A stretch of 64,000 nucleotides of DNA from an uncultured Candidatus Saccharibacteria bacterium (GTDB lineage: Bacteria; Patescibacteriota; Minisyncoccia; Phycocordibacterales; UBA1006), in assembly GCA_964628065.1 (NCBI GenBank), contig CAZVLM010000001.1:9357-73356 (forward strand). Reading direction: 5' to 3'. Both the position numbers and the translations under genes were made by a program. Below are positions 4,518-61,745 of this stretch, piece by piece. The notes under the pieces are model-generated. The model was given only the letters and a program-made list of their open reading frames with translations. It did not search any database and was not told the origin of the DNA. Each line of letters opens with the position of its first letter. Position 1 is the first letter of the stretch.

Positions 4518-5834
4518 CTATACGAACGTCAACGCAATTCCCTTCTGGTTGGCACGTCCTGTTCGGCCGATTCGGTGAACATAAGTGTCATATGACTGTG
4601 GAATTTCGTAGTTGATTACGTGCGTTACTCCAGAAATATCAAGCCCTCGAGCCGCAACGTCAGTCGCGATAAGAATCTGATTTTTTCCTGTTGAGAATGA
4701 TGCAAGCGCTCGCTGTCGTTCCCGATGACGCTTATCTCCGTGAATCGCTTCAGCCTTGAATCCATGTGACTGTAGATCTTTTTCAAGTCGGTCTACTGAT
4801 CGTTTTGTTTCAGCAAACACAAGTACTTTTGAAAATTCTGGAGAAGTAAGGAGTCCGCATAGGATTTCCAATTTCTTGGTTTTATCCTGTACTCGAACCA
4901 CGTCCTGGTCCACATTTTTCGAAGTGTCTCGAGACTTCACTGAAATCTTTACTGGACTGTTCAAGAATTCATGAACAAGCTTTTCGATAACAGGCGCCAT
5001 AGTTGCCGAGAACAACAACATCTGTCGCTTGTCAGGAATCTGTCGAAGGAAGTATCGAACATCGTCGATGAATCCCATGTCGAGCATTCGGTCAGCCTCA
5101 TCAAGAATTACTGTTGAAACATCAGAGAGGTCAAGTTTTCCCTGTTCAAAAAGATCTTTCAATCGTCCTGGAGTTCCGATAATAATGTTGTGCTTCTGAG
5201 CAAGAGCCATGATCTGAGGTCGGATTGGTGCTCCACCTACGCAGGTAACGTTGAACATTGCCAACCCCTTTGTAAGTTCGATGCACTCTCGCTGAATCTG
5301 GATCGCAAGTTCTCGTGTTGGTGTAATAATAATTGCCTTGTGCTTCTTGTCATTAAGAATTTTGTTGATTGTTGGGATCAAAAACGCAGCTGTTTTACCA
5401 GTTCCTGTATTTGCAAGACCGATAATATCTCGTCCATCCAATGCGTTTGGAATAGCCTGGTCCTGAATAGGGCTTGGAAGGATGAATCCTTTTCGTGCAA
5501 TATTCTGCTTGAGTCGGTCATCAACTTTAAAATCACTGAACGTGTGAACTGGCGTAAACACTTCCTCTACGGTTGTTGTTGCTCGGTTAATGAATTTTGA
5601 GATGTCGATATTCTCGCCAGCAAACTTTCGTCCGCCTCCTCGAGATCCACCTCCTCGATTTCCGAAGCGAGATCCTCCACCACCTCCAAATCGCGAAGGC
5701 CGTGATCCGCCAAATGATGGACGCCCTGAAGAAGACCGTGATGGTCCTGCGCTGTTAAAAGACCGCTTTCCTCCTCGTGAAGGCTTTCGGCTTGAGTAAG
5801 GGTCACCAATAGGTGCCTGTTTCATTGTATACAT
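4518..5834 (-). CDS. DEAD-box ATP-dependent RNA helicase with N-terminal RGG/Gly-Arg-rich tail
   Basis: Motifs Q, GTGKTAAF, PTRELA, DEAD (ILDEADRMLDMGF), SAT, ARGLD and HRIGRTGR. The N-terminus carries GGSRPSRFGGGGGSRFGNRGGGSRGGG. Confidence 0.9.
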   Translation of the reverse strand: MYTMKQAPIGDPYSSRKPSRGGKRSFNSAGPSRSSSGRPSFGGSRPSRFGGGGGSRFGNRGGGSRGGGRKFAGENIDISKFINRATTTVEEVFTPVHTFSDFKVDDRLKQNIARKGFILPSPIQDQAIPNALDGRDIIGLANTGTGKTAAFLIPTINKILNDKKHKAIIITPTRELAIQIQRECIELTKGLAMFNVTCVGGAPIRPQIMALAQKHNIIIGTPGRLKDLFEQGKLDLSDVSTVILDEADRMLDMGFIDDVRYFLRQIPDKRQMLLFSATMAPVIEKLVHEFLNSPVKISVKSRDTSKNVDQDVVRVQDKTKKLEILCGLLTSPEFSKVLVFAETKRSVDRLEKDLQSHGFKAEAIHGDKRHRERQRALASFSTGKNQILIATDVAARGLDISGVTHVINYEIPQSYDTYVHRIGRTGRANQKGIALTFV

Positions 5835-11848: not shown

Positions 11849-12952
11849 TTATTTCAAAACAACCTTCCCATTTTTAAGTATCAAAAACCCCTCCCTCTCC
11901 AACCCGCTCACAATAGTTTCAATTCTATCCTTATCATCAGAAAGACTTTCCAATTTCTCTTCGAGCTTCTCAATCAAGAGCTTTTTCTTTTCTAAAAGAA
12001 TTTCCAAAATCTTTCCGCGAATCTCGCGATTACTTCCTTCAAATTTTGATTGCTTGGTATAGTGCCTACTTTTCTTATTAGGATTAGGAATCGATTTTCC
12101 TAAATACGACCCGTAGTCCATGAGCGCCCAATACCATTCACGAGGGTTTTCTTTGTCGACAGTTTTTTCTATGAGTTTTAGAAGTTCCCTATCATGCACC
12201 CCAAACACACCCCGCACTTCGTGTCGACCCTCTCTAAAAGAGAGGGTTTGCTCCGATTGGAGTTCGGTCTCGACGGAGACTGCCCTCTCTTTTAGAGAGG
12301 GTGCCACGCGAAGCGGGCGGGTGTGTTTTGACTGGGACTCCGAGAAAAAATGATGCAAGTACACTCGTCGAATATTTGTCTCAATCATCGAGACAGGCTG
12401 ATTGTATGCAAACGCAGAAATCGCTCCCGCTGTATACGGACCGATTCCTGGTAGTGAAAGAATATCTTCATACGTCTGGGGAAATTTTCCTTTAAATCTT
12501 TGCATAATAATTTCCGCTGACCTTTTCATGCGAATTGCCCTCGAATTGTATCCAAGCCCTTTCCATAGCCGAAGTACGTCCGACTGCTTAGCCTCTGCAA
12601 GTGCCTTCACTGTTGGAAATTCCTTCATCCACTTATTGAAAAAATCTACTACTCTGTCTACTTGTGTCTGCTGAAGCATAATCTCCGAAACGTACACATT
12701 GTACGGCTTCGTATTCTTTCTCCACGGCAACTCGTGGCGTCTATTTGCATGATAATAATCCCAGACAGTTTTTTGGAATTTTTTGAGGTCGGAAGGCTTC
12801 ATGTTGGCAATTATACCAGAAACGAAAATCGCCAGACTTCCTTTAGGAAGTCTGGCGATTATTTTACAGTTGTACAAAGAATTACTCAGCCAACTCCTGG
12901 CCGATAAGCGCGCCGCGTCCGCCGCTGTGCACGTAGTCGTCAGAAAACTCAA
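11849..12952 (-). CDS. HhH-GPD DNA glycosylase (MutY/Nth-like). Likely true start is the ATG at 12802. It carries a ~40-aa in-frame insertion encoded by a GC-rich palindromic element.
   Basis: LPWRKNTKPYNVYVSEIMLQQTQV...LPGIGPYTAGAISAFAYNQPVSMIETNIRRV gives the HhH-GPD signature. Residues ~209-251 (KHTRPLRVAPSLKERAVSVETELQSEQTLSFREGRHEVRGVFG) are encoded by element D. No Fe-S Cys cluster is present. Confidence 0.6.
   Translation of the reverse strand: MSFLTTTCTAADAARLSARSWLSNSLYNCKIIARLPKGSLAIFVSGIIANMKPSDLKKFQKTVWDYYHANRRHELPWRKNTKPYNVYVSEIMLQQTQVDRVVDFFNKWMKEFPTVKALAEAKQSDVLRLWKGLGYNSRAIRMKRSAEIIMQRFKGKFPQTYEDILSLPGIGPYTAGAISAFAYNQPVSMIETNIRRVYLHHFFSESQSKHTRPLRVAPSLKERAVSVETELQSEQTLSFREGRHEVRGVFGVHDRELLKLIEKTVDKENPREWYWALMDYGSYLGKSIPNPNKKSRHYTKQSKFEGSNREIRGKILEILLEKKKLLIEKLEEKLESLSDDKDRIETIVSGLEREGFLILKNGKVVLK
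12203..12329. repeat. GC-rich palindromic mini-element (copy D), in frame inside the glycosylase gene
   Basis: Terminal inverted repeats AAACACACCCCGCACTTCGTG / CACGCGAAGCGGGCGGGTGTGTTT. Two internal hairpins: CCCTCTCTAAAAGAGAGGG and CCCTCTCTTTTAGAGAGGG. Confidence 0.7.
12827..12860 (-). terminator. Perfect 15-bp stem hairpin (AATCGCCAGACTTCC-TTTA-GGAAGTCTGGCGATT) followed by a U-tract on the minus strand
   Basis: Inverted repeat read directly from the sequence. It lies downstream of the ORF ending at 12882 and ~25 nt upstream of the glycosylase ATG at 12802. Confidence 0.5.
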
Positions 12953-24574: not shown

Positions 24575-24690
24575 AGTTCTCAGTTCTGGCGACACCTACT
24601 CTCCCTCTTACGAAGTACCATTGGTGTAGCGGCGCTTAACGACTCTGTTCGAAATGGGAAGAGGTGTGACCACCGTACTAAATCACCAGA
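24575..24690 (-). rRNA. rrf: 5S ribosomal RNA
   Basis: The reverse complement reads ..GGTGGTCACACCTCTTCCCATTTCGAACAGAGTCGTTAAGCGCCGCTACACCAATGGTACTTCGTAAGAGGGAGAGTAGGTGTCGCCAGAAC, with helix I closing as GTTCTGGTG / CGCCAGAAC. Confidence 0.75.
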
Positions 24691-24799: not shown

Positions 24800-28205
<3,406 letters not shown>

Positions 28206-51069: not shown

Positions 51070-51300
51070 CCTCACCCCCAGCCCCTCTCCAACACACCCG
51101 TCACTCGCTCCGCTCGTGTACACCCTCTCTAAAAGAGAGGGTTGGCTCCGTCGAGATTATGTACCAATAGAAACTACCGCTTATCTCATAGAGTTAAGCG
51201 GTAGTTTCATTTCAAAATTGAGTCTCGATGTCTACCCTCTCTTTTAGAGAGGGACGCTCGGCGAAGCCGGCGGGGTGTGTTTGTCCGTCGGGTGAGGACA
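51070..51300. repeat. GC-rich composite palindromic element (copy E) with nested inverted repeats
   Basis: Outer IR CCTCACCC / GGGTGAGG. Inner TIR ACACACCCG.. / ..CGGGGTGTGT. Hairpins CCCTCTCTAAAAGAGAGGG, CCCTCTCTTTTAGAGAGGG and AAACTACCGCTTA..TAAGCGGTAGTTT. Confidence 0.7.
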
Positions 51301-51360: not shown

Positions 51361-53292
51361 TTAGTAAGCTCCCTGTGGCTGTGTTTTGAACGCGTTAGAG
51401 TTCAATCCAGCTGTGTATGTGTTCCATGATCCTGTGTATGCTGTTGCATCAGATGCAGACCAGTTAACGTTGATCAATGTAGCTCGAGTAGTGATAGCAC
51501 TTGCTGGCTGGTATGTAACTACCAACTGGAAGTTCTTTGTCTGTCCTACTGGAACCTGGAAGTTTCCATTAGCTGTTGTAATTGTGTCGTTTCCTGTGTA
51601 GTAAACAGTTCCTGATCCTGCTGCTGCACATGCTGTTGTAGCATCGATGCAGAACTGGATAGCCTGAGCTGCTGAAGCTGTTGTAGCAGCTGCTGCAACT
51701 GTAGGAACGTATGCTGTAGATCCGAACGCAGTTACTGAGAATGGAATTGTGTATGTAACGAATGTATGTGTGTTAGCTCCTCCTGGATTACCTACGTTTG
51801 TTGTAGCCATTCCTGTAGAAGAAACACTAATACCATTTACGTATACATATACCTTGCTTCCTGTTGTAGAACCAGTCAAGTATGTAGATCCTGAAAGCAC
51901 GTTGCTTCCTGAATCGTAAGCCTGGATGTTAGAAACATCTCCTGAGGCAACACTTACCTGAGCGTATTCACCTGCTGGGAAGTTTGCAGATCCTACAGTG
52001 TTGAAGTCACCCTTGATTGTAAGAGTTGTTGTTGTTCCTGTAGCAACATTCAAGTTCAAGTTCTGGAACGTAATTGTCTGAGAACCGTATCCTGAAGCTA
52101 CTGCCTGAGAATCAAGCTGTACTCCTGATGCGTCGTACAATCGAAGTGTGTTTACAACAGCACTTGGAACTGTAGCTGAAGCACCAACTGTCAATGTTAC
52201 AGGAAGTCGTCGAACGTTAATTGTAGATCCCTGTGCATTTAGGTCAATCTTAGCCAACTGTACTCCGTTTGTATTAGCTGATGCGCTACCAGAAACTACT
52301 GAGTCGTTAGAATCAGAAAGGTTCTTTGTAACTGTCAACTTGATGCTCTGAGCTGAAGCTGCAGAAGCAAAACTGAAGTATGTGTTAGAAGATGAGTAAG
52401 TTGTTCCAGACAATGGAACGTTTCCGAAGATGTTAGAAGGTGTGTATGTAAACACTCCTGTTGCATCTGAGTATCGGATAGATGTTACATCAAGTCCCCA
52501 AACATCTCCAGACATGTTGTTAGAATCGATTACAGGAAGTGCTGTAACTGAGATAACAATGTTGTTTGTAGAGTTAGCAGTAAGCTGAGCTCCTGAAACT
52601 GGAACGTATGCAGAGTAAACTGAGTTGTACTGTGCGAACTGTCCAGCGTCAAGTGATCCAACCTTTACTCCGTTTAGCCAAACTCCAACGTTTGAAGCGT
52701 ACTTTGTGAACTGGTAATCAGTTCCTGATCCAAAGTTGTAGAATGAAAGGTTCAACCCTGTAAGCTGAGCTGCTCCACCTGCACCTGTAACCATTCGAAT
52801 GTTAGCAATTGGTTTGTCAACCTGACCAACACCTACTGATGTGTTCAAGTTTCCAGAAACTGCTGAAACATTGTTAATGCTCAAAGGAGCTGATGAATTG
52901 TTTGTTGGAACTCCAGATGGAGACAATGTGCAGTTAGATGCAAGTGTCATTCCATTTGGACATAGACCTGCTGAAGGTGTTGTTGGAACTGCAGGTGTAC
53001 CACAGTTGTTCAATGCTACCTTAGTCATGTTTCCTACTAGTCCATCAGCTGGCAATCCCTTTAGGGTCTGGAAAGCCTTAGCTGCTGCAACTGACATAGA
53101 ACCGAAGTTCCCGTCAACTACTAGATTTGCACCGTTGCAAGCGTTCAAAGCTGCCTGAACATTTCGTGCGTATGGTCCCATTGATCCCTTCTTGATCGTT
53201 GTCGATCCGAAATCAAATGTTGCTGCTGAAGCTGAAACTGTAACCGCCATAGCGATTGCAAATGCAGCGACTGCGATAAATTTCTTAATCAT
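51361..53292 (-). CDS. Abundant secreted surface protein (S-layer-like). N-terminal peptidoglycan-binding (PG_binding_1-like) domain followed by a long Ser/Thr/Ala/Gly/Val/Asn-rich beta-rich region.
   Basis: Signal peptide. ..ARNVQAALNACNGANLVVDGNFGSMSVAAAKAFQTLKGLPADGLVGNMT.. matches the PG-binding pattern. Codon usage is strongly biased (GCT/GTT/TCT/ACT/GGA/AAC/TAC), unlike neighbouring genes. The 5' UTR is 667 nt. Confidence 0.55.
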   Translation of the reverse strand: MIKKFIAVAAFAIAMAVTVSASAATFDFGSTTIKKGSMGPYARNVQAALNACNGANLVVDGNFGSMSVAAAKAFQTLKGLPADGLVGNMTKVALNNCGTPAVPTTPSAGLCPNGMTLASNCTLSPSGVPTNNSSAPLSINNVSAVSGNLNTSVGVGQVDKPIANIRMVTGAGGAAQLTGLNLSFYNFGSGTDYQFTKYASNVGVWLNGVKVGSLDAGQFAQYNSVYSAYVPVSGAQLTANSTNNIVISVTALPVIDSNNMSGDVWGLDVTSIRYSDATGVFTYTPSNIFGNVPLSGTTYSSSNTYFSFASAASAQSIKLTVTKNLSDSNDSVVSGSASANTNGVQLAKIDLNAQGSTINVRRLPVTLTVGASATVPSAVVNTLRLYDASGVQLDSQAVASGYGSQTITFQNLNLNVATGTTTTLTIKGDFNTVGSANFPAGEYAQVSVASGDVSNIQAYDSGSNVLSGSTYLTGSTTGSKVYVYVNGISVSSTGMATTNVGNPGGANTHTFVTYTIPFSVTAFGSTAYVPTVAAAATTASAAQAIQFCIDATTACAAAGSGTVYYTGNDTITTANGNFQVPVGQTKNFQLVVTYQPASAITTRATLINVNWSASDATAYTGSWNTYTAGLNSNAFKTQPQGAY

Positions 53293-53483
53293 AATTAAAA
53301 TTAATTTTAATCATCCTTCCTTATTAAGGGGAAAGAAGTCGTACACGATTCAACGTCGACTTATTAGTGTTGAATCATATGTGTACTATTTTATATTTCT
53401 ATGTTTTGAGACCCACCACTATTATTTGCATAATACTGATCGATAACACAGAAACATTGTGAAGTGTATCTAACCCGTCGGTT

Positions 53484-53600
53484 AGAACACATCACAAGAA
53501 CACACCCGCCCGCTTCGCGAGGCACCCTCTCTAAAAGAGAGGGTAGACCATCGAGATTTTTTTCAGGAAGGAACATTCTTGTGATGTGTTCTTTTCTGAC
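53484..53600. repeat. GC-rich palindromic half-element (copy F) bracketed by a 16-bp inverted repeat
   Basis: ACACACCCGCCCGCTTCGCGAGGCACCCTCTCTAAAAGAGAGGG, flanked by GAACACATCACAAGAA ... TTCTTGTGATGTGTTC. Confidence 0.6.
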
Positions 53601-53959
53601 GCGAAAAGAAACACCGTTAATAACAAAATAAACAAAAGCTAAAAAACTTCTAAGTTTCATTTATTTCTATCTATTTTGTTATCAAGGAATTGGTTTCCAA
53701 CAGATTGAAATCTATCGGAAATCCACAAGCACCGGACCATCATACCATAATCGACCATTCCTTTGCAATACCTAGCCATAAAAGGATTTACGCGAGATAT
53801 TGTCGCAGGAATTGACGCTATGAAATGTGTGGAGTTCGGATAGTATATCGTGCCTATAAAAACACGCAACTTACTTGTCTATACCAGATGACGCACAAAT
53901 GCCCCGCACATTACGGGACATTTGCTAATAACATTCTTTACATTTATGTCAAGTATCTC

Positions 53960-54817
53960 CTAGTTTTTTGAAATCTGATAGGTTGTCCATCTCTTGTTCC
54001 CCTCTTTCCTGACCACATTCATTTCAACTAATGTATTCACTTCTCGTTGGAGGGTCTTATCACTGCAATCGGTCACCATCGACTTGATATCTGCCAACGT
54101 ACAAACTCCTTTCGATTTAATGACATTTAGAATTTCCTGCTTTCTATCGAGCTTATCACTTATTTTTAAAGGTGATTTTATGGTGTCTTTTTGAAATGTC
54201 GTTTTAATTTTAGATATATCTTTTGATATGTCGTTTTGATGTAATAATGTCGTTTTGATGTCGTTTTGATGTCGTTTTGATTGATACCGAGCAACCACTT
54301 CATCAAAGGCGGTGTCGCGCATGATATCTCCGGAAATTAATGGTTGAGACATGGGCACCGATGAAACGATAAATGCTTGTTCTTGCGTGGCTAATTTTGA
54401 TGCTTCGTCAGAAAATATATCTACCAACTTTGTCAATTCGTTTACAATGATATCGGCGTTCATTTGTGATATGTGGTGTGAAATTGATCCGATATGAACC
54501 AGTGATATCACTTGATCAAGTCGTATTGAAACACGTGTTAACGAACCTCGAGAAACACCCTCTTTTGATGTTAATAACCCATACGCGGTTGTGAGTAACT
54601 CCAGCGAATCTTTCCGCAATGACTCTGTAAGGGCTAATGATTTATCCATCACGTCTGTAACCAGATAAATGGCCGCCACAATTTTCTCGATCTTTTTAAC
54701 GGATACAAAGAGCGTCTTTTCTAACGGATTAACGAATAAACCATATAAAATATGAGATTTATTAGAAATGTCGTTTTGATTATTCGCATGTCCTTTTGTA
54801 ATGTCGTTTTGATTCAT
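53960..54817 (-). CDS. Hypothetical DNA-binding protein with C-terminal winged HTH and QNDI peptide repeats. Its gene carries iterated 11-13-bp DNA motifs.
   Basis: C-terminal ..VCTLADIKSMVTDCSDKTLQREVNTLVEMNVVRKEGNKRWTTY.. is wHTH-like. HQNDI repeats are encoded by ATGTCGTTTTG repeats. Confidence 0.45.
   Translation of the reverse strand: MNQNDITKGHANNQNDISNKSHILYGLFVNPLEKTLFVSVKKIEKIVAAIYLVTDVMDKSLALTESLRKDSLELLTTAYGLLTSKEGVSRGSLTRVSIRLDQVISLVHIGSISHHISQMNADIIVNELTKLVDIFSDEASKLATQEQAFIVSSVPMSQPLISGDIMRDTAFDEVVARYQSKRHQNDIKTTLLHQNDISKDISKIKTTFQKDTIKSPLKISDKLDRKQEILNVIKSKGVCTLADIKSMVTDCSDKTLQREVNTLVEMNVVRKEGNKRWTTYQISKN
54196..54281. repeat. Iteron-like direct repeats of ATGTCGTTTTG(AT): 5 copies, including 3 perfect tandem 11-mers at 54247..54279
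   Basis: Copies at 54196, 54228, 54247, 54258 and 54269, read directly from the sequence. Confidence 0.6.
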
Positions 54818-54844
54818 ATGGAGCGTAAAAAATGTCCTTTTGTT
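54768..54844. repeat. Second cluster of the ATGTCSTTTTG motif (4 copies) spanning the start codon of the wHTH gene and its upstream region
   Basis: Copies at 54768 and 54801 (ATGTCGTTTTGAT), and at 54788 and 54832 (ATGTCCTTTTGT). The last copy lies upstream of the start codon at 54817. Confidence 0.55.
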
Positions 54845-54886
54845 CTATAAACGACACTATAAACTTAAAATGTCTTTTATGCAATG

Positions 54887-55013
54887 CCCTCATCCGCCCT
54901 TCGGGCACCTTCTCCCTTTGGGAGAAGGCTACACTTTCGACTTCAGTTGGCACCAATAAAAATGTCTGCCCCTCTCCCTTTGGGAGAGGGTGCCCGAAGG
55001 GCGGGAGAGGGTT
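54887..55013. repeat. GC-rich palindromic mini-element (copy G) immediately upstream of ftsK
   Basis: TIRs CCGCCCTTCGGGCACC / GGTGCCCGAAGGGCGG. Internal hairpins CTTCTCCCTTTGGGAGAAGG and CCCTCTCCCTTTGGGAGAGGG. Confidence 0.65.
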
Positions 55014-55051
55014 GGAATATAAGGGTTTTTACTGATATACTTATAGGACAA

Positions 55052-57313
55052 ATGGCAAAAAAAGATCTGAAACAAAAGAAAAATTCTGTTGAAAAAGCTC
55101 CAGAGGAATCTAGCAATCCTCGTATTAAGCGATCTATTATCGCGATCATTTTACTTGCGATTACGGTAGTTATTATCCTCGGAGCCTTTGATGCGGCAGG
55201 TATTGCCGGTCATTTTATCTATCATTCGGTGCTTAAATTTTTGGTAGGATTTGGTGTTATCTTAGTGCCTATCTTCCTTGTCGTTTATGCGGTAAACCTT
55301 CTTAAGAACCAGCCTCACGAGTGGTCATGGGTTGAGTATGTTAGCTCTTCCCTTTTGATGATTTCCATCCTTGGTTTCATCCAAATTATTTCTCCAGGAA
55401 TTAAAGGCGGTGGCGTTATTGGGTACGGCATAGGAACCGTTATGACGAAGATTTTTGATGTCTATGCCGGCGCAACAATATTAGGTGCCGTTGCACTTAT
55501 TTCGACATTGGTACTTATTGATGAGGAATTAAGAATGCCTGCGTTCCTTAAAAATATGTTTTCTAAGTCTTCAAAAGAAGAGTCATTTGTTGATGAAGAT
55601 TTTGTACTCACAAAAGCAGATTTGAATGAATTACCACCAGCTCCAATAGCGGACCCTCTCCTTGCAGGAGAGGGTGGACGGCGCCAGCCGCCGGGTGAGG
55701 TTGTGAAAGCTGAAGTACCCGAAGAACCTCGGATTGCTAAAAAAGAAAAAGTTGAGGACGAGTTCATTACTGCAAATGCCGTATTTTCAGAAACATATGA
55801 ATACCCTCCAACCAGCCTCCTTGGTCAGTCATCAGGCAAGCCATCCGTTGGAGACATCAAAGCGAACGCGAACTTGATCAAGCGAACCCTTTTGAACTTT
55901 GGAATTGATGTGGAAATGGATGAAGTTTCAATCGGGCCAACCGTGACTCGCTACGCTTTGAAACCAGCGGAAGGTATTAAGCTGACCCGAATTCTCGCAC
56001 TCAAATCTGACCTTGCACTCGCCCTTGCCGCCCACCCTATTCGAATCGAAGCCCCTATCCCTGGCAAGTCATTAGTAGGTATCGAAATTCCGAACAGAAC
56101 TCTTGAGAATGTAGGTCTTGGAACCCTGCTTGATGAAGACTCATTCCAGAATTCTCCTAACCGTCTTCAGGTTGCCCTTGGAAAGGGGGTGGCTGGAAAG
56201 TCTTACTTTGCAAACTTAGCAAAAATGCCGCACCTTTTGATTGCCGGAACTACAGGATCAGGAAAGTCGGTTACTATGCACAACTTAATCCTGTCGCTCT
56301 TATATAAGAACGGACCTGAAGACCTCCGGGTTATTATGATCGACCCAAAACGAGTAGAACTTACTCTTTATAATGATATCCCCCACCTTCTAACACCTGT
56401 TATTAAAGAATCAAAGAAGGCTATCCTTGCCCTTAAATGGGCCGCGAAGGAAATGGAACGACGGTATGACATTCTTGAAAATTGCTCATGCCGAGACATT
56501 CAGTCCTATCATGCAAATATCCAAGACCCCTACTATGCTAAGACCAAGAAAAAAAGTCGCGATGACGATGATACAGATACCAAGGCGCCGGAGCGAATGC
56601 CTTACATCGTAGTATTTATTGAAGAGTTGGCCGACATCATGCAGGCATATCCTCGCGAATTGGAAGCCGGTATTGTCCGACTTGCCCAAATGTCCCGAGC
56701 CGTGGGTATTCACCTCATCCTTTCAACCCAGCGACCATCCGTGAACGTTATTACCGGACTTATTAAAGCCAATATTCCATCACGATTAGCACTTCAAGTA
56801 GCCTCTCAGATTGACTCTCGAACAATTTTGGATGCGCCAGGCGCCGAATCGCTTCTTGGTAAGGGAGATATGCTCTATCAAGGTGCTGACATGTCTAAGC
56901 CTGAACGTATGCAGTGTGCAAACGTAGATGAAAACCAAGTTAAGAAAGTCGTTGCCTTTATTAAGAAGCACAACGTTTCCCTTCCTGACGAAATCGCCTT
57001 GGGCGAAGTATTGGATGATGACCGATCAATTGTTTCAGCTAATCTTGAAAGCGACGAGGACGACGAACTTTATGAAGATGCTCGAGCCTGCGTTATTGAG
57101 GCCGGCAAAGCTTCAACCAGCTATATTCAGCGAAAATTGAAGGTTGGCTACTCTCGAGCAGCGCGCCTCATCGACCTTTTGGAGGAACGCGGAGTGGTTG
57201 GTCCTGCGGACGGCGCGAAACCTAGAGAAGTACTTAGTGGTGGATCTTCTCCTGAAATTGGGTTATCCACAACCGATGTTATTGATAGATTAAACGAGGA
57301 GAGCGAGGTATAA
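55052..57313 (+). CDS. ftsK: DNA translocase FtsK (start reassigned to the ATG at 55052)
   Basis: N-terminal TM helices, Walker A GTTGSGKS, Walker B/RecA-like motor, C-terminal gamma wHTH (..YIQRKLKVGYSRAARLIDLLEERGVVGP..). The track ORF start at 54884 reads through repeat element G. Confidence 0.9.
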   Translation: MAKKDLKQKKNSVEKAPEESSNPRIKRSIIAIILLAITVVIILGAFDAAGIAGHFIYHSVLKFLVGFGVILVPIFLVVYAVNLLKNQPHEWSWVEYVSSSLLMISILGFIQIISPGIKGGGVIGYGIGTVMTKIFDVYAGATILGAVALISTLVLIDEELRMPAFLKNMFSKSSKEESFVDEDFVLTKADLNELPPAPIADPLLAGEGGRRQPPGEVVKAEVPEEPRIAKKEKVEDEFITANAVFSETYEYPPTSLLGQSSGKPSVGDIKANANLIKRTLLNFGIDVEMDEVSIGPTVTRYALKPAEGIKLTRILALKSDLALALAAHPIRIEAPIPGKSLVGIEIPNRTLENVGLGTLLDEDSFQNSPNRLQVALGKGVAGKSYFANLAKMPHLLIAGTTGSGKSVTMHNLILSLLYKNGPEDLRVIMIDPKRVELTLYNDIPHLLTPVIKESKKAILALKWAAKEMERRYDILENCSCRDIQSYHANIQDPYYAKTKKKSRDDDDTDTKAPERMPYIVVFIEELADIMQAYPRELEAGIVRLAQMSRAVGIHLILSTQRPSVNVITGLIKANIPSRLALQVASQIDSRTILDAPGAESLLGKGDMLYQGADMSKPERMQCANVDENQVKKVVAFIKKHNVSLPDEIALGEVLDDDRSIVSANLESDEDDELYEDARACVIEAGKASTSYIQRKLKVGYSRAARLIDLLEERGVVGPADGAKPREVLSGGSSPEIGLSTTDVIDRLNEESEV
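55652..55700. repeat. GC-rich palindromic mini-element (copy H), in frame within the ftsK linker region
   Basis: GGACCCTCTCCTTGCAGGAGAGGGTGGACGGCGCCAGCCGCCGGGTGAGG encodes ..DPLLAGEGGRRQPPGEV.. Confidence 0.6.
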
Positions 57314-61310: not shown

Positions 61311-61745
61311 TTAAAACGGAATGTCATTTGGGTTTAGCTCTTCTGTAGGATACTCAATCGTGTCTACTTCAGGAGCCTGTGAAGACTGCTCTGAAGCACC
61401 AGACTGGGCACTAGACCCGCCCTTAGGACCGAACTGGAAATTCTCACCGACAATTTCTGTGCGGTAATTTTTCTTTCCATCTGGACCGTCCCATGATCGG
61501 GTTGAAATACGCCCTTCTACCATCAAACCATTTCCTTTGTGCATCCACTGGGCAATGGTTTCTGCCTGTTTTCCGAAGAAAACGACATTGTGGTAGTCGG
61601 TAGACTCTTGCTTCTTCCCTGACTGGTCTTTCCAGCTTCGGTTGGTAGCGATCGCGAAGTTACAGACTTTGCTTCCTGACGGAAGGGCCTTCAATTCGGG
61701 ATCGCGAGTCAGATTTCCATAGATGATTGCTTTGTTGATATACAT
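61311..61745 (-). CDS. ssb: Single-stranded DNA-binding protein (start at the internal ATG, 61745)
   Basis: MYINKAIIYGNLTRDPELK...HNVVFFGKQAE...DIPF acidic tail. The track start at 61808 adds 21 unsupported residues. Confidence 0.85.
   Translation of the reverse strand: MYINKAIIYGNLTRDPELKALPSGSKVCNFAIATNRSWKDQSGKKQESTDYHNVVFFGKQAETIAQWMHKGNGLMVEGRISTRSWDGPDGKKNYRTEIVGENFQFGPKGGSSAQSGASEQSSQAPEVDTIEYPTEELNPNDIPF

Follow-up and report, generated by a model that had tools for sequence, protein, structure and literature searches.

A repeat word selected as DNA within and upstream of a winged-helix protein gene divergent from ftsK in Patescibacteria

Background

Plasmid Rep proteins such as RepA of pPS10, RepE of F, and pi of R6K are paired with iterons and an inverted-repeat operator, and the origin of phage lambda lies inside gene O. 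The parC site of plasmid R1 consists of 2 x 5 iterons of 11 bp, a layout to which tubC is similar, and in the ParR-parC (R1) and TubR-tubC (pBtoxis) systems cooperative binding goes together with autoregulation, ParR having a ribbon-helix-helix (RHH) fold and TubR being a winged helix-turn-helix (wHTH) protein. Here, we describe a short repeat word that occurs within and upstream of a gene for a 285-aa wHTH protein, adjacent to ftsK, in the genome of an uncultured Candidatus Saccharibacteria bacterium. The stretch of DNA analyzed, referred to as the window, is 64,000 nucleotides (64 kb) long (assembly GCA_964628065.1, contig CAZVLM010000001.1, positions 9,357 to 73,356). A preliminary description had proposed that the repeats form an iteron-like array with a DNA-level function, of the Rep-iteron or autoregulatory kind, and had hinted at a replication, segregation, or partition element.

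Judged by analogy, the logic of this locus resembles that of Rep/iteron, lambda O/ori, and spo0J/parS, while its geometry resembles that of parC and tubC. As in the Rep systems, a winged-helix protein is accompanied by one word that forms an inverted pair at its own promoter and direct arrays nearby. However, the protein found here joins an Avd-like bundle to a single wHTH instead of having a WH1-WH2 structure, the unit is 11 bp rather than the 17–22 bp of Rep, and the locus is chromosomal, has no origin signatures, and carries its repeats inside the open reading frame (ORF). Lambda O/ori offers the parallel of binding sites within the binder's own coding sequence, in a flexible interdomain segment, yet the lambda sites are the origin, whereas here nothing indicates replication, the promoter is occupied as well, and a cellular family of phylum scale keeps the arrangement. 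ParR-parC and TubR-tubC share with our locus two clusters of about five direct repeats of 11–12 bp around the binder's promoter, but they differ in that our locus has no motor gene, lies on a chromosome and not a plasmid, has one cluster inside the gene, and encodes an extra four-helix bundle.

For Spo0J/ParB of B. subtilis, where parS lies inside spo0J, the cis site of a chromosomal DNA-binding protein is likewise found within its own gene. There, a ParB-fold CTPase binds one 16-bp palindrome, in contrast to the 10–12 copies of a 9–11-bp asymmetric word and the unrelated protein seen here, for which no match to the ParB N-terminal/CTPase family was found. DeoR, GalR, LacI, and PurR (operator in own coding region) are similar in the presumed negative autoregulation or repression through several operators that lie hundreds of bp apart, some of them coding, and in the DeoR-like HTH. 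Unlike these looping repressors, our protein has its HTH at the C-terminus, lacks a DeoRC sensor domain, and is associated with far more sites, and these sites shape its sequence and persist where family proteins share about 30% identity. The system belongs to none of these groups, because defining features were looked for and were not found. What is new is a probable autoregulatory operator or iteron-like array inside the ORF of its presumed reader, in an uncharacterised family of phylum scale, where it shapes the protein sequence.

Results and discussion

The repeat is selected as DNA, not as peptide. The word reads CAAAACGACAT on the coding strand of the gene and ATGTCGTTTTG on the + strand, and a scan of the window for ATGTCGTTTTG at no more than 1 mismatch gave 10 matches. 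Nine of these lie at the gene locus, 54196–54842 (starts at 54196, 54228, 54247, 54258, 54269, 54768, 54788, 54801, and 54832), and the sole match elsewhere is at 61578, with 1 mismatch. In dinucleotide shuffles of the window, the mean was 1.79 matches (sd 1.16, maximum 5), and 0 of 100 reached 10. The scan recovered all nine copies, in two clusters, that had been described from the sequence before, together with the three perfect head-to-tail 11-mers at 11-bp spacing (54247–54279) and the copy in non-coding DNA at 54832–54842, upstream of the ATG (54815–54817, - strand). That description was correct for the nine and incomplete overall, since relaxed matching adds three looser copies: one in the linker-coding segment (54184–54191), one inverted (54849–54857), and one degenerate direct copy (54870–54878). 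The total at the locus is thus nine to twelve copies in 700 bp.

Along the coding strand, the tandem triple runs TCA AAA CGA CAT, CAA AAC GAC ATC, and AAA ACG ACA, so that the same word occurs in all three frames and is translated as S-K-R-H, Q-N-D-I, and K-T-T. Near the start of the ORF the copies read as QNDI, (T)KGH, and QNDI, within M-N-QNDI-T-KGH-...-QNDI. The peptides SKRHQNDIKTTL, N-terminal QNDISKRH, and IKTT are kept in 62 close homologues, down to 30% identity. Orthologous DNA was obtained for nine close homologues (10 orthologues with the window), and in it the word occupies matching positions (+6 to +42 and about +517 to +630), with further copies upstream at about -25 and -63/-72. 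The copy in the 5' untranslated region (5'-UTR), at -22 to -26, is kept in orthologues L001, L003, L004, L009, and L010. By comparison, the word is nearly absent from the 20-kb flanks of the orthologous loci.

Codon choice within the copies was compared with that in the other ORFs of the same ten loci. Motif-coded residues use AAC for N in 97% of cases (background 42%), GAC for D in 97% (33%), CAA for Q in 100% (57%), TCA for S in 100% (35%), CGA for R in 100% (37%), and AAA for K in 100% (66%), and the motif-coded threonine pair is ACG followed by ACA. We then counted AAA[ACG]GACA after permuting codons within each ORF, which leaves the protein and its codon usage unchanged. The ten orthologues hold 87 copies, against 21.6 ± 3.6 in these synonymous shuffles, and 80 distant loci hold 392, against 104 ± 8.8. 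Forward intragenic copies in the distant loci fall into the three frames as 160/100/78, and 54 copies are reverse. Selection at the DNA level follows from one word being used in three frames, from frozen synonymous sites, and from the loss of copies upon shuffling.

A purely protein-level repeat (HQNDI/QNDI) with no DNA function has next to no chance of being the explanation. The peptide motifs are kept in the family alignment, as such a repeat would have it, but one nucleotide word yields three different peptides, protein-preserving shuffles drop 75% of the copies, copies extend into non-coding DNA and are also found inverted, and the segments concerned are mostly predicted to be disordered. 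Codon usage and the synonymous shuffles rule out a peptide-only repeat. A conserved peptide over degenerate nucleotides is clearly not what the orthologues show, as they keep the nucleotides including synonymous sites, and the DNA-level function put forward in the preliminary description is borne out.

Two of the copies upstream of the ATG overlap the predicted promoter of the gene. Ten aligned upstream regions give a promoter of the form TTGCnT - 17 nt - TAtnAT, and the architecture in the window's clade is TTGCnT / AAACGACAT ... TAtnAT / ATGTCGTTT. The direct copy (AAACGACAT; AAAAGACAT in the window) fills the predicted spacer beside the -35 hexamer. The inverted copy ATGTCGTTT starts within the final two bases of the -10 hexamer and spans the expected start site, and ATGTCGTTTA is kept at this position in the orthologues (upstream alignment A3). 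The two form an inverted pair (54849–54857 and 54870–54878), whose centres are 21 bp apart and which brackets the -10 box. This layout would fit an operator that occludes RNA polymerase at a promoter predicted from the alignment, and the autoregulatory module suggested earlier agrees with such a pair at a predicted sigma70-type promoter of the gene itself. The usual promoter across the wider family, ATGTCCgtTATATAATGGACAt, is a palindrome with the -10 box at its centre. Among 528 TATAAT sites, TAATGGACA was observed 43 times near the family-gene promoter vs 8 times elsewhere; being specific to this promoter, it was rejected as a general promoter feature (-10 plus GGACA).

None of the 62 close homologues has a Pfam domain. 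A profile search of 1.84 billion cluster representatives returned 5,028 proteins at E ≤ 1e-3 and 1,176 at ≤ 1e-30, full length, so that the family comprises ~5,000 clusters at 50% identity. It has no Pfam model, its members are named 'hypothetical protein' or 'DeoR family transcriptional regulator' in their sources, and nothing on it was found in the literature searched for this protein family. The sources are Patescibacteria (candidate phyla radiation, CPR, bacteria), Ca. Zambryskibacteria, and Ca. Paceibacterota, and the metagenome-assembled genomes (MAGs) of the orthologues are labelled Ca. Saccharibacteria. The 80 distant loci, taken from metagenomes, encode proteins with about 25–30% identity to the window protein. 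Distant members carry KKD[IT] at the N-terminus and YKGH...NV[LF]YN in the linker, which correspond to TATAAAGGACAT and its reverse complement AATGTCCTTTAT.

The same architecture was observed throughout the family. In most of the 80 distant loci, AAAGGACA, AAAAGACA, or TAAAGGAC are the commonest repeated 8-mers in the gene ±150 bp. The density of AAA[ACG]GACA is 0.4–1.1 per 50 bp per locus at -150..+150 and +450..+800 of the ATG, vs 0.00–0.03 per 50 bp in the flanks to ~3 kb either side. Adjacent forward copies are mostly 11 bp apart, and forward-reverse pairs 20–22 bp. Wherever the flank suffices, synteny is conserved as well, with ftsK, a Glucodextran_B-like small protein, recA, and efp divergently upstream and PG_binding_1 and Wzy_C downstream. 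The AAA-GACA core and the recognition helix of the protein are both invariant in the family, and the window's clade deviates in the fourth base only (AAACGACA). This base was tabulated against the wing residue that follows an invariant Trp: S goes with A/G in 516/532 copies, and T/A goes with C in 102/146.

The encoded protein has a disordered N-terminal tail, an Avd-like four-helix bundle, a disordered linker, and a C-terminal DeoR/BlaI-like winged helix. In a single-chain AlphaFold2 model built from a 57-sequence alignment, residues 1–17 are disordered, the bundle spans residues 31–151 with a predicted local distance difference test score (pLDDT) above 90, residues 181–220 are of low confidence, and the wHTH lies at 218–282. 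The N-terminal copies code for residues 3–17 and the linker copies for residues about 180–211, so the DNA words lie mostly in low-confidence segments; the tandem triple coincides with the poorly supported end of a predicted helix (pLDDT 58). Along with the model, HTH_DeoR matches at the C-terminus in 21/29 family members (best 2.8e-7) uphold the claim of a C-terminal wHTH; Penicillinase_R matches in 14/29, and no match to the DeoRC sensor domain was found among the 29. The winged helix has a family-invariant KT[IL]QRE recognition helix and a G-x-[KR]-R-W wing, and its fold resembles MecI, TubR, AspA, and many repressors. Matches in PADLOC and PHROGs are limited to the generic wHTH domain, and a defence-system or phage protein was rejected on that basis.

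The bundle shares the four-helix fold of bAvd and 23S rRNA intervening sequence (IVS) proteins (PF22296, PF05635; PDB 8ub7, 4dwl, 2rld, 2gsc), a group characterised by homopentameric assembly, and the best structural matches of the model are Avd and MecI-type proteins. Sequence similarity to bAvd/IVS is marginal, with one member each at E 8.6e-4 and 1.4e-3 (n = 29) and no match for the window protein. Unlike in bAvd, the bundle is fused to a wHTH. Gene calls in 9 loci with ±10-kb flanks include no reverse transcriptase of a diversity-generating retroelement, and there is no template or variable repeat (TR/VR) nearby.

Outside the family gene, sites exist but are rare in the sampled sequence. 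In 766 kb of related sequence, only two off-gene clusters of the word were observed, at the loci designated L099 and L015. At L099 (6282–6312), the perfect palindrome TTGTCCTTTATAAAGGACAA and a further copy lie between the family gene and the next gene, 520 bp downstream of the former, and look like an orphan operator. L015 is a 6.6-kb contig (CALRGS010000036.1) of a Ca. Nomurabacteria MAG that was found by the word scan, with 12 convergent copies of CAAAACGACAT at 5310–5570 (six forward, then reverse, then one forward) in intergenic DNA between tRNA-Gly and a YraN-like gene. No family gene was found on the 6.6 kb of this contig, and its array is a possible trans target or second cis site. Within the window, no operator-like pair occurs outside the gene's promoter, save one likely chance match.

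A tandem-word scan of genome and viral collections returned, besides orthologues, many unrelated arrays. In L044–L081 (IMG/VR contigs) and in L016, L020, and L026–L028 (Prevotella/Bacteroidales), AAAACGACATA occurs two to three times upstream of one gene, whose product begins M-T-H-A-I-T-I-F-Q-N-I-K-E-T. These Bacteroidota phage-like arrays are flanked by TCGACAT/TGACAT repeats and look like iterons or operators. None of the contigs with AAAACGACATA-type arrays encodes a homologue of the CPR family; kinship was rejected for this reason, and a similar word has probably come into use convergently.

Judged from sequence, the locus probably encodes a multivalent autorepressor with operator arrays that reach into its own ORF. 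This reading is favoured by the enrichment of the word, its selection as DNA, the non-coding copies at the promoter, the exclusive co-occurrence of gene and sites, a wHTH protein whose disordered segments hold the coding copies, the pairing of an invariant recognition helix with an invariant AAA-GACA core, the co-variation of the fourth base with a wing residue, and the spacing peaks at 11 bp (direct copies) and 20–22 bp (inverted pairs). We infer that the sites are double-stranded DNA (dsDNA) with the word (T/A)AAAnGACA(T/A), read by the encoded protein's own winged-helix domain. The protein would most likely be an oligomer, with the Avd-like four-helix bundle as its core and wHTH domains on long flexible linkers, which would make it multivalent. 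As the inverted pair brackets the -10 hexamer, its occupancy should block RNA polymerase and lead to autorepression. Further direct copies in the 5'-UTR and the first 50 nt of the ORF would be additional sites, and a second array of 5–7 mostly direct copies, with a basic spacing of 11 bp, follows ~530 bp downstream in the linker-coding segment. The protein may bridge or coat both arrays, giving a cooperative nucleoprotein complex or a loop over the whole gene. Such a complex would set the protein level very tightly and may also affect the back-to-back ftsK-recA-efp promoter. QNDI, SKRH, and KTT (KGH, KKD[IT], and NVLY in distant relatives) would then be by-products of the DNA word in different frames, presumably tolerated because they fall in disordered segments.

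Pfam domains confirm that the neighbouring gene is ftsK, as claimed earlier, and the divergent cluster has the order ftsK - Glucodextran_B-like small protein - recA - small ORF - efp. In the promoter region of ftsK, the block AGTATATCAAGAAA...CTTATnnTACAAGG is kept in alignment A3. The conserved back-to-back promoter suggests co-regulation of ftsK-recA-efp with the regulator gene, and the highly conserved divergent pair with ftsK would argue for co-regulation rather than a replicon function. Two observations concern ftsK itself. Its -10-like TATACT lies only ~10 nt upstream of the ATG at 55052, in the window and in the orthologues, so its mRNA would be nearly leaderless. In orthologue L004 (7748–9936), ftsK is called as two ORFs (430 + 305 aa), possibly through a frameshift or assembly error.

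Several points weigh against the autorepressor. A regulator with itself as the only visible target in 64 kb is odd, and the L015 array, with no family gene on its contig, means that off-gene targets exist and that the function may be broader. Both the promoter and the reader are deduced from sequence. The co-variation of the fourth base with the wing residue is essentially a single clade split, which makes it weak evidence for the encoded protein as the reader. A GC-rich 125-nt palindromic element (folding at -85 kcal/mol, z = -9) lies between the two divergent promoters. It is unique to the window genome and absent at this place in the orthologues, whose spacer is ~123 nt; it does not belong to the system, yet it keeps the operator region apart from the ftsK promoter, so tight coupling to ftsK is not required. 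Finally, copies are oriented ~6:1 with the coding strand, untranslated leader included. This bias counts against the autorepressor because a symmetric dsDNA-binding dimer does not require it, and it hints at polar head-to-tail assembly or at an extra role in RNA or on the non-template strand.

The same bias is what would favour an RNA-level element, in which translation or stability would be controlled by a small RNA or an RNA-binding protein (possibly through the Avd-like domain) that binds the word in the mRNA. We regard this as quite improbable. The kept copies include one within the -35/-10 spacer and another inverted over the -10 box and start site, the promoter site of the wider family is the palindrome around the -10 box, 54 intragenic copies are reverse, and palindromes of the form F-N10-R (F, forward; R, reverse) are encoded as YKGH...NVLY. 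L015 and L099 also have palindromic or convergent arrays in non-coding DNA. An Rfam search of the region, at gathering and E-value thresholds, gave hairpin noise only.

The sites might instead be read by another factor, such as a global regulator or FtsK-gamma, with the wHTH gene co-occurring only indirectly; this is improbable, if somewhat less so than an RNA element. It draws on binding by the encoded protein being a deduction, on the L015 array without a family gene on its contig, and on the strong copy polarity, which recalls polar motifs such as the FtsK-orienting polar sequences (KOPS). But across 90 loci and 766 kb the word is restricted to the family gene, it accompanies the family down to about 30% protein identity, and its variable base co-varies with a wing residue of the encoded protein. 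KOPS-type motifs are dispersed genome-wide, whereas the word is missing from the remaining 63 kb of the window, and a KOPS-like dispersed polar motif was rejected on this ground.

A centromere-like site or chromosome landmark was also considered, in which the protein would polymerise along both arrays in its gene and so mark the ftsK locus for segregation or for coordination with the division machinery, with autoregulation as a side effect. The two clusters of 5–7 direct repeats at 11-bp spacing around the promoter of the binding protein, the generic resemblance of the wHTH to the centromere binders TubR and AspA, the confinement of the word essentially to one locus, and the invariant ftsK linkage are all in keeping with it. 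Nevertheless, it is unlikely: no gene for a partition NTPase (ParA, ParM, TubZ) is present in the conserved neighbourhood, the locus is not at a skew or strand-bias switch, and repression explains the promoter-bracketing pair more simply. The fold similarity is no better than to MecI and many repressors, as the Foldseek matches to TubR (3m9a, E 0.043; also 3m8e) and AspA (5k5q) stand among many wHTH matches. A self-contained cis/trans version for Patescibacteria, in which an Avd-like oligomer with several winged-helix arms polymerises polarly on its promoter and ORF arrays and the division and segregation machinery (FtsK) uses the resulting nucleoprotein body, seems if anything slightly less likely still. 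A landmark of this kind would be a new chromosomal site for centromere function or division coordination, inside the binder's gene and without a ParA/ParM/TubZ-type motor.

It is very improbable that the repeats are origin iterons for which the gene supplies the initiator, after the Rep/iteron or lambda O/ori type. Direct repeats within a DNA-binding protein's gene, together with an inverted pair at its promoter, would be expected of such a system, and the L015 array flanks one perfect DnaA box, but a single box there is not above chance. GC skew is negative on both sides of the locus with no sign change, and the genes return to the - strand after a 6-kb + block, with no global orientation switch. 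A DnaA-box scan of the 64 kb gave 13 matches vs 17 expected, none within 2 kb of the arrays, and no dnaA signature was found in the window. The GC content of 54001–56000 is 0.407, like the rest of the window, no fine-scale search for an unwinding element having been made. The protein showed no Rep, RepA, or lambda-O fold and no Rep family in Pfam or NCBIfam, and the locus belongs to the chromosomal core, alongside rRNA, recA, efp, and ftsK, in thousands of species. With skew, gene orientation, DnaA boxes, dnaA signature, and Rep fold all negative, a replication origin was rejected.

The preliminary description therefore stands in its DNA-level and autoregulatory parts, given the kept nucleotides and the pair that brackets the -10 hexamer. 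Its hint at replication, segregation, or partition is unsupported, as no skew or orientation switch, DnaA cluster, Rep fold, or partition NTPase was found. The analysis defines a very large Patescibacteria family whose genomic partner, ftsK-recA-efp, is fixed and for which a cognate DNA word is predicted. Few regulators with such predicted sites seem to have been described in uncultivated Patescibacteria. Should the protein control ftsK and recA, it would give a first handle on the control of cell division and DNA repair in CPR bacteria; on the DNA-damage network of Patescibacteria, a passage in PMC8565304 cites Sanchez-Osuna et al. 2017. The locus also provides an unusually clean natural case of overlapping codes, where peptide motifs in disordered segments are fully explained by a DNA site in three frames, and such peptide conservation should not be taken as protein function. 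It further gives a testable model for multivalent regulators that use intragenic operator arrays. Coordinates at the locus are listed in Table 1.

Table 1. Window positions of the regulator gene, its repeat copies, the predicted promoters, and ftsK
Feature	Position	Strand	Remarks
Gene of 285-aa DNA-binding protein	53960..54817	-	ORF call
Winged-helix domain coding region (residues 218-282)	53972..54166	-	
Linker-coding intragenic array	54184..54281	-	six copies (54184, 54196, 54228, 54247, 54258, 54269), coding-strand orientation
Four-helix bundle coding region (residues 31-151), Avd / 23S-rRNA-IVS-protein-like	54365..54727	-	presumed oligomerisation domain
N-terminal intragenic array	54768..54811	-	three copies (54768, 54788, 54801) in first 50 nt of ORF
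Direct 5'-UTR copy, variant AAAAGGACAT	54832..54842	-	-25 relative to ATG
Inverted copy AAACGACAC (+ strand letters)	54849..54857	+	overlaps last 2 nt of -10 hexamer and expected transcription start
-10 hexamer TATAGT, gene's own promoter	54856..54861	-	predicted from alignment
Degenerate direct copy AAAAGACAT	54870..54878	-	within promoter spacer, abuts -35 hexamer
-35 hexamer TTGCAT, gene's own promoter	54879..54884	-	predicted from alignment
GC-rich 125-nt palindromic element between both divergent promoters	54887..55011	.	51-nt arms
Promoter-like site of ftsK, TTGGAA-18-TATACT with TG	55012..55041	+	predicted; back to back with regulator promoter in orthologues
ftsK	55052..57313	+	Pfam FtsK_4TM, FtsK_alpha, FtsK_SpoIIIE, FtsK_gamma

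Other features of the window

A conserved structured leader RNA of about 330–440 nt was observed at 53290–53777 (-), between the wHTH gene and the PG_binding_1 gene (51361–53292), and it is preceded by a promoter-like TTGCAA-18-TATGAT. RNAalifold on 8 orthologues gave 70 pairs, 30 of them with compensatory double changes. The parts of this RNA are a hairpin with an invariant 13-nt loop (AC UAAUAAGUCGAC), a GACG-loop hairpin, an anti-Shine-Dalgarno stem, and a final hairpin that contains the start codon. It looks riboswitch-like, has no Rfam family, and was seen in the window's own clade only.

The GC-rich palindromic element between the divergent promoters is one copy of a dispersed element with the core CCCTCTC-TTT(T)RG-GAGAGGG, for which 8 matches were observed vs 0.11 expected. 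Copies lie at 54887–55011, 12228–12301, 51123–51253, and 53505–53541, one of them inside the variable stem of the leader RNA, and the element resembles miniature inverted-repeat transposable elements or repetitive extragenic palindromes (MITE/REP-like). Elsewhere in the window, a group I intron (Rfam RF00028, 57 bits) was found at 25122–25338 within the 23S rRNA gene (24826–28189, -), and the 5S rRNA gene lies at 24584–24690.

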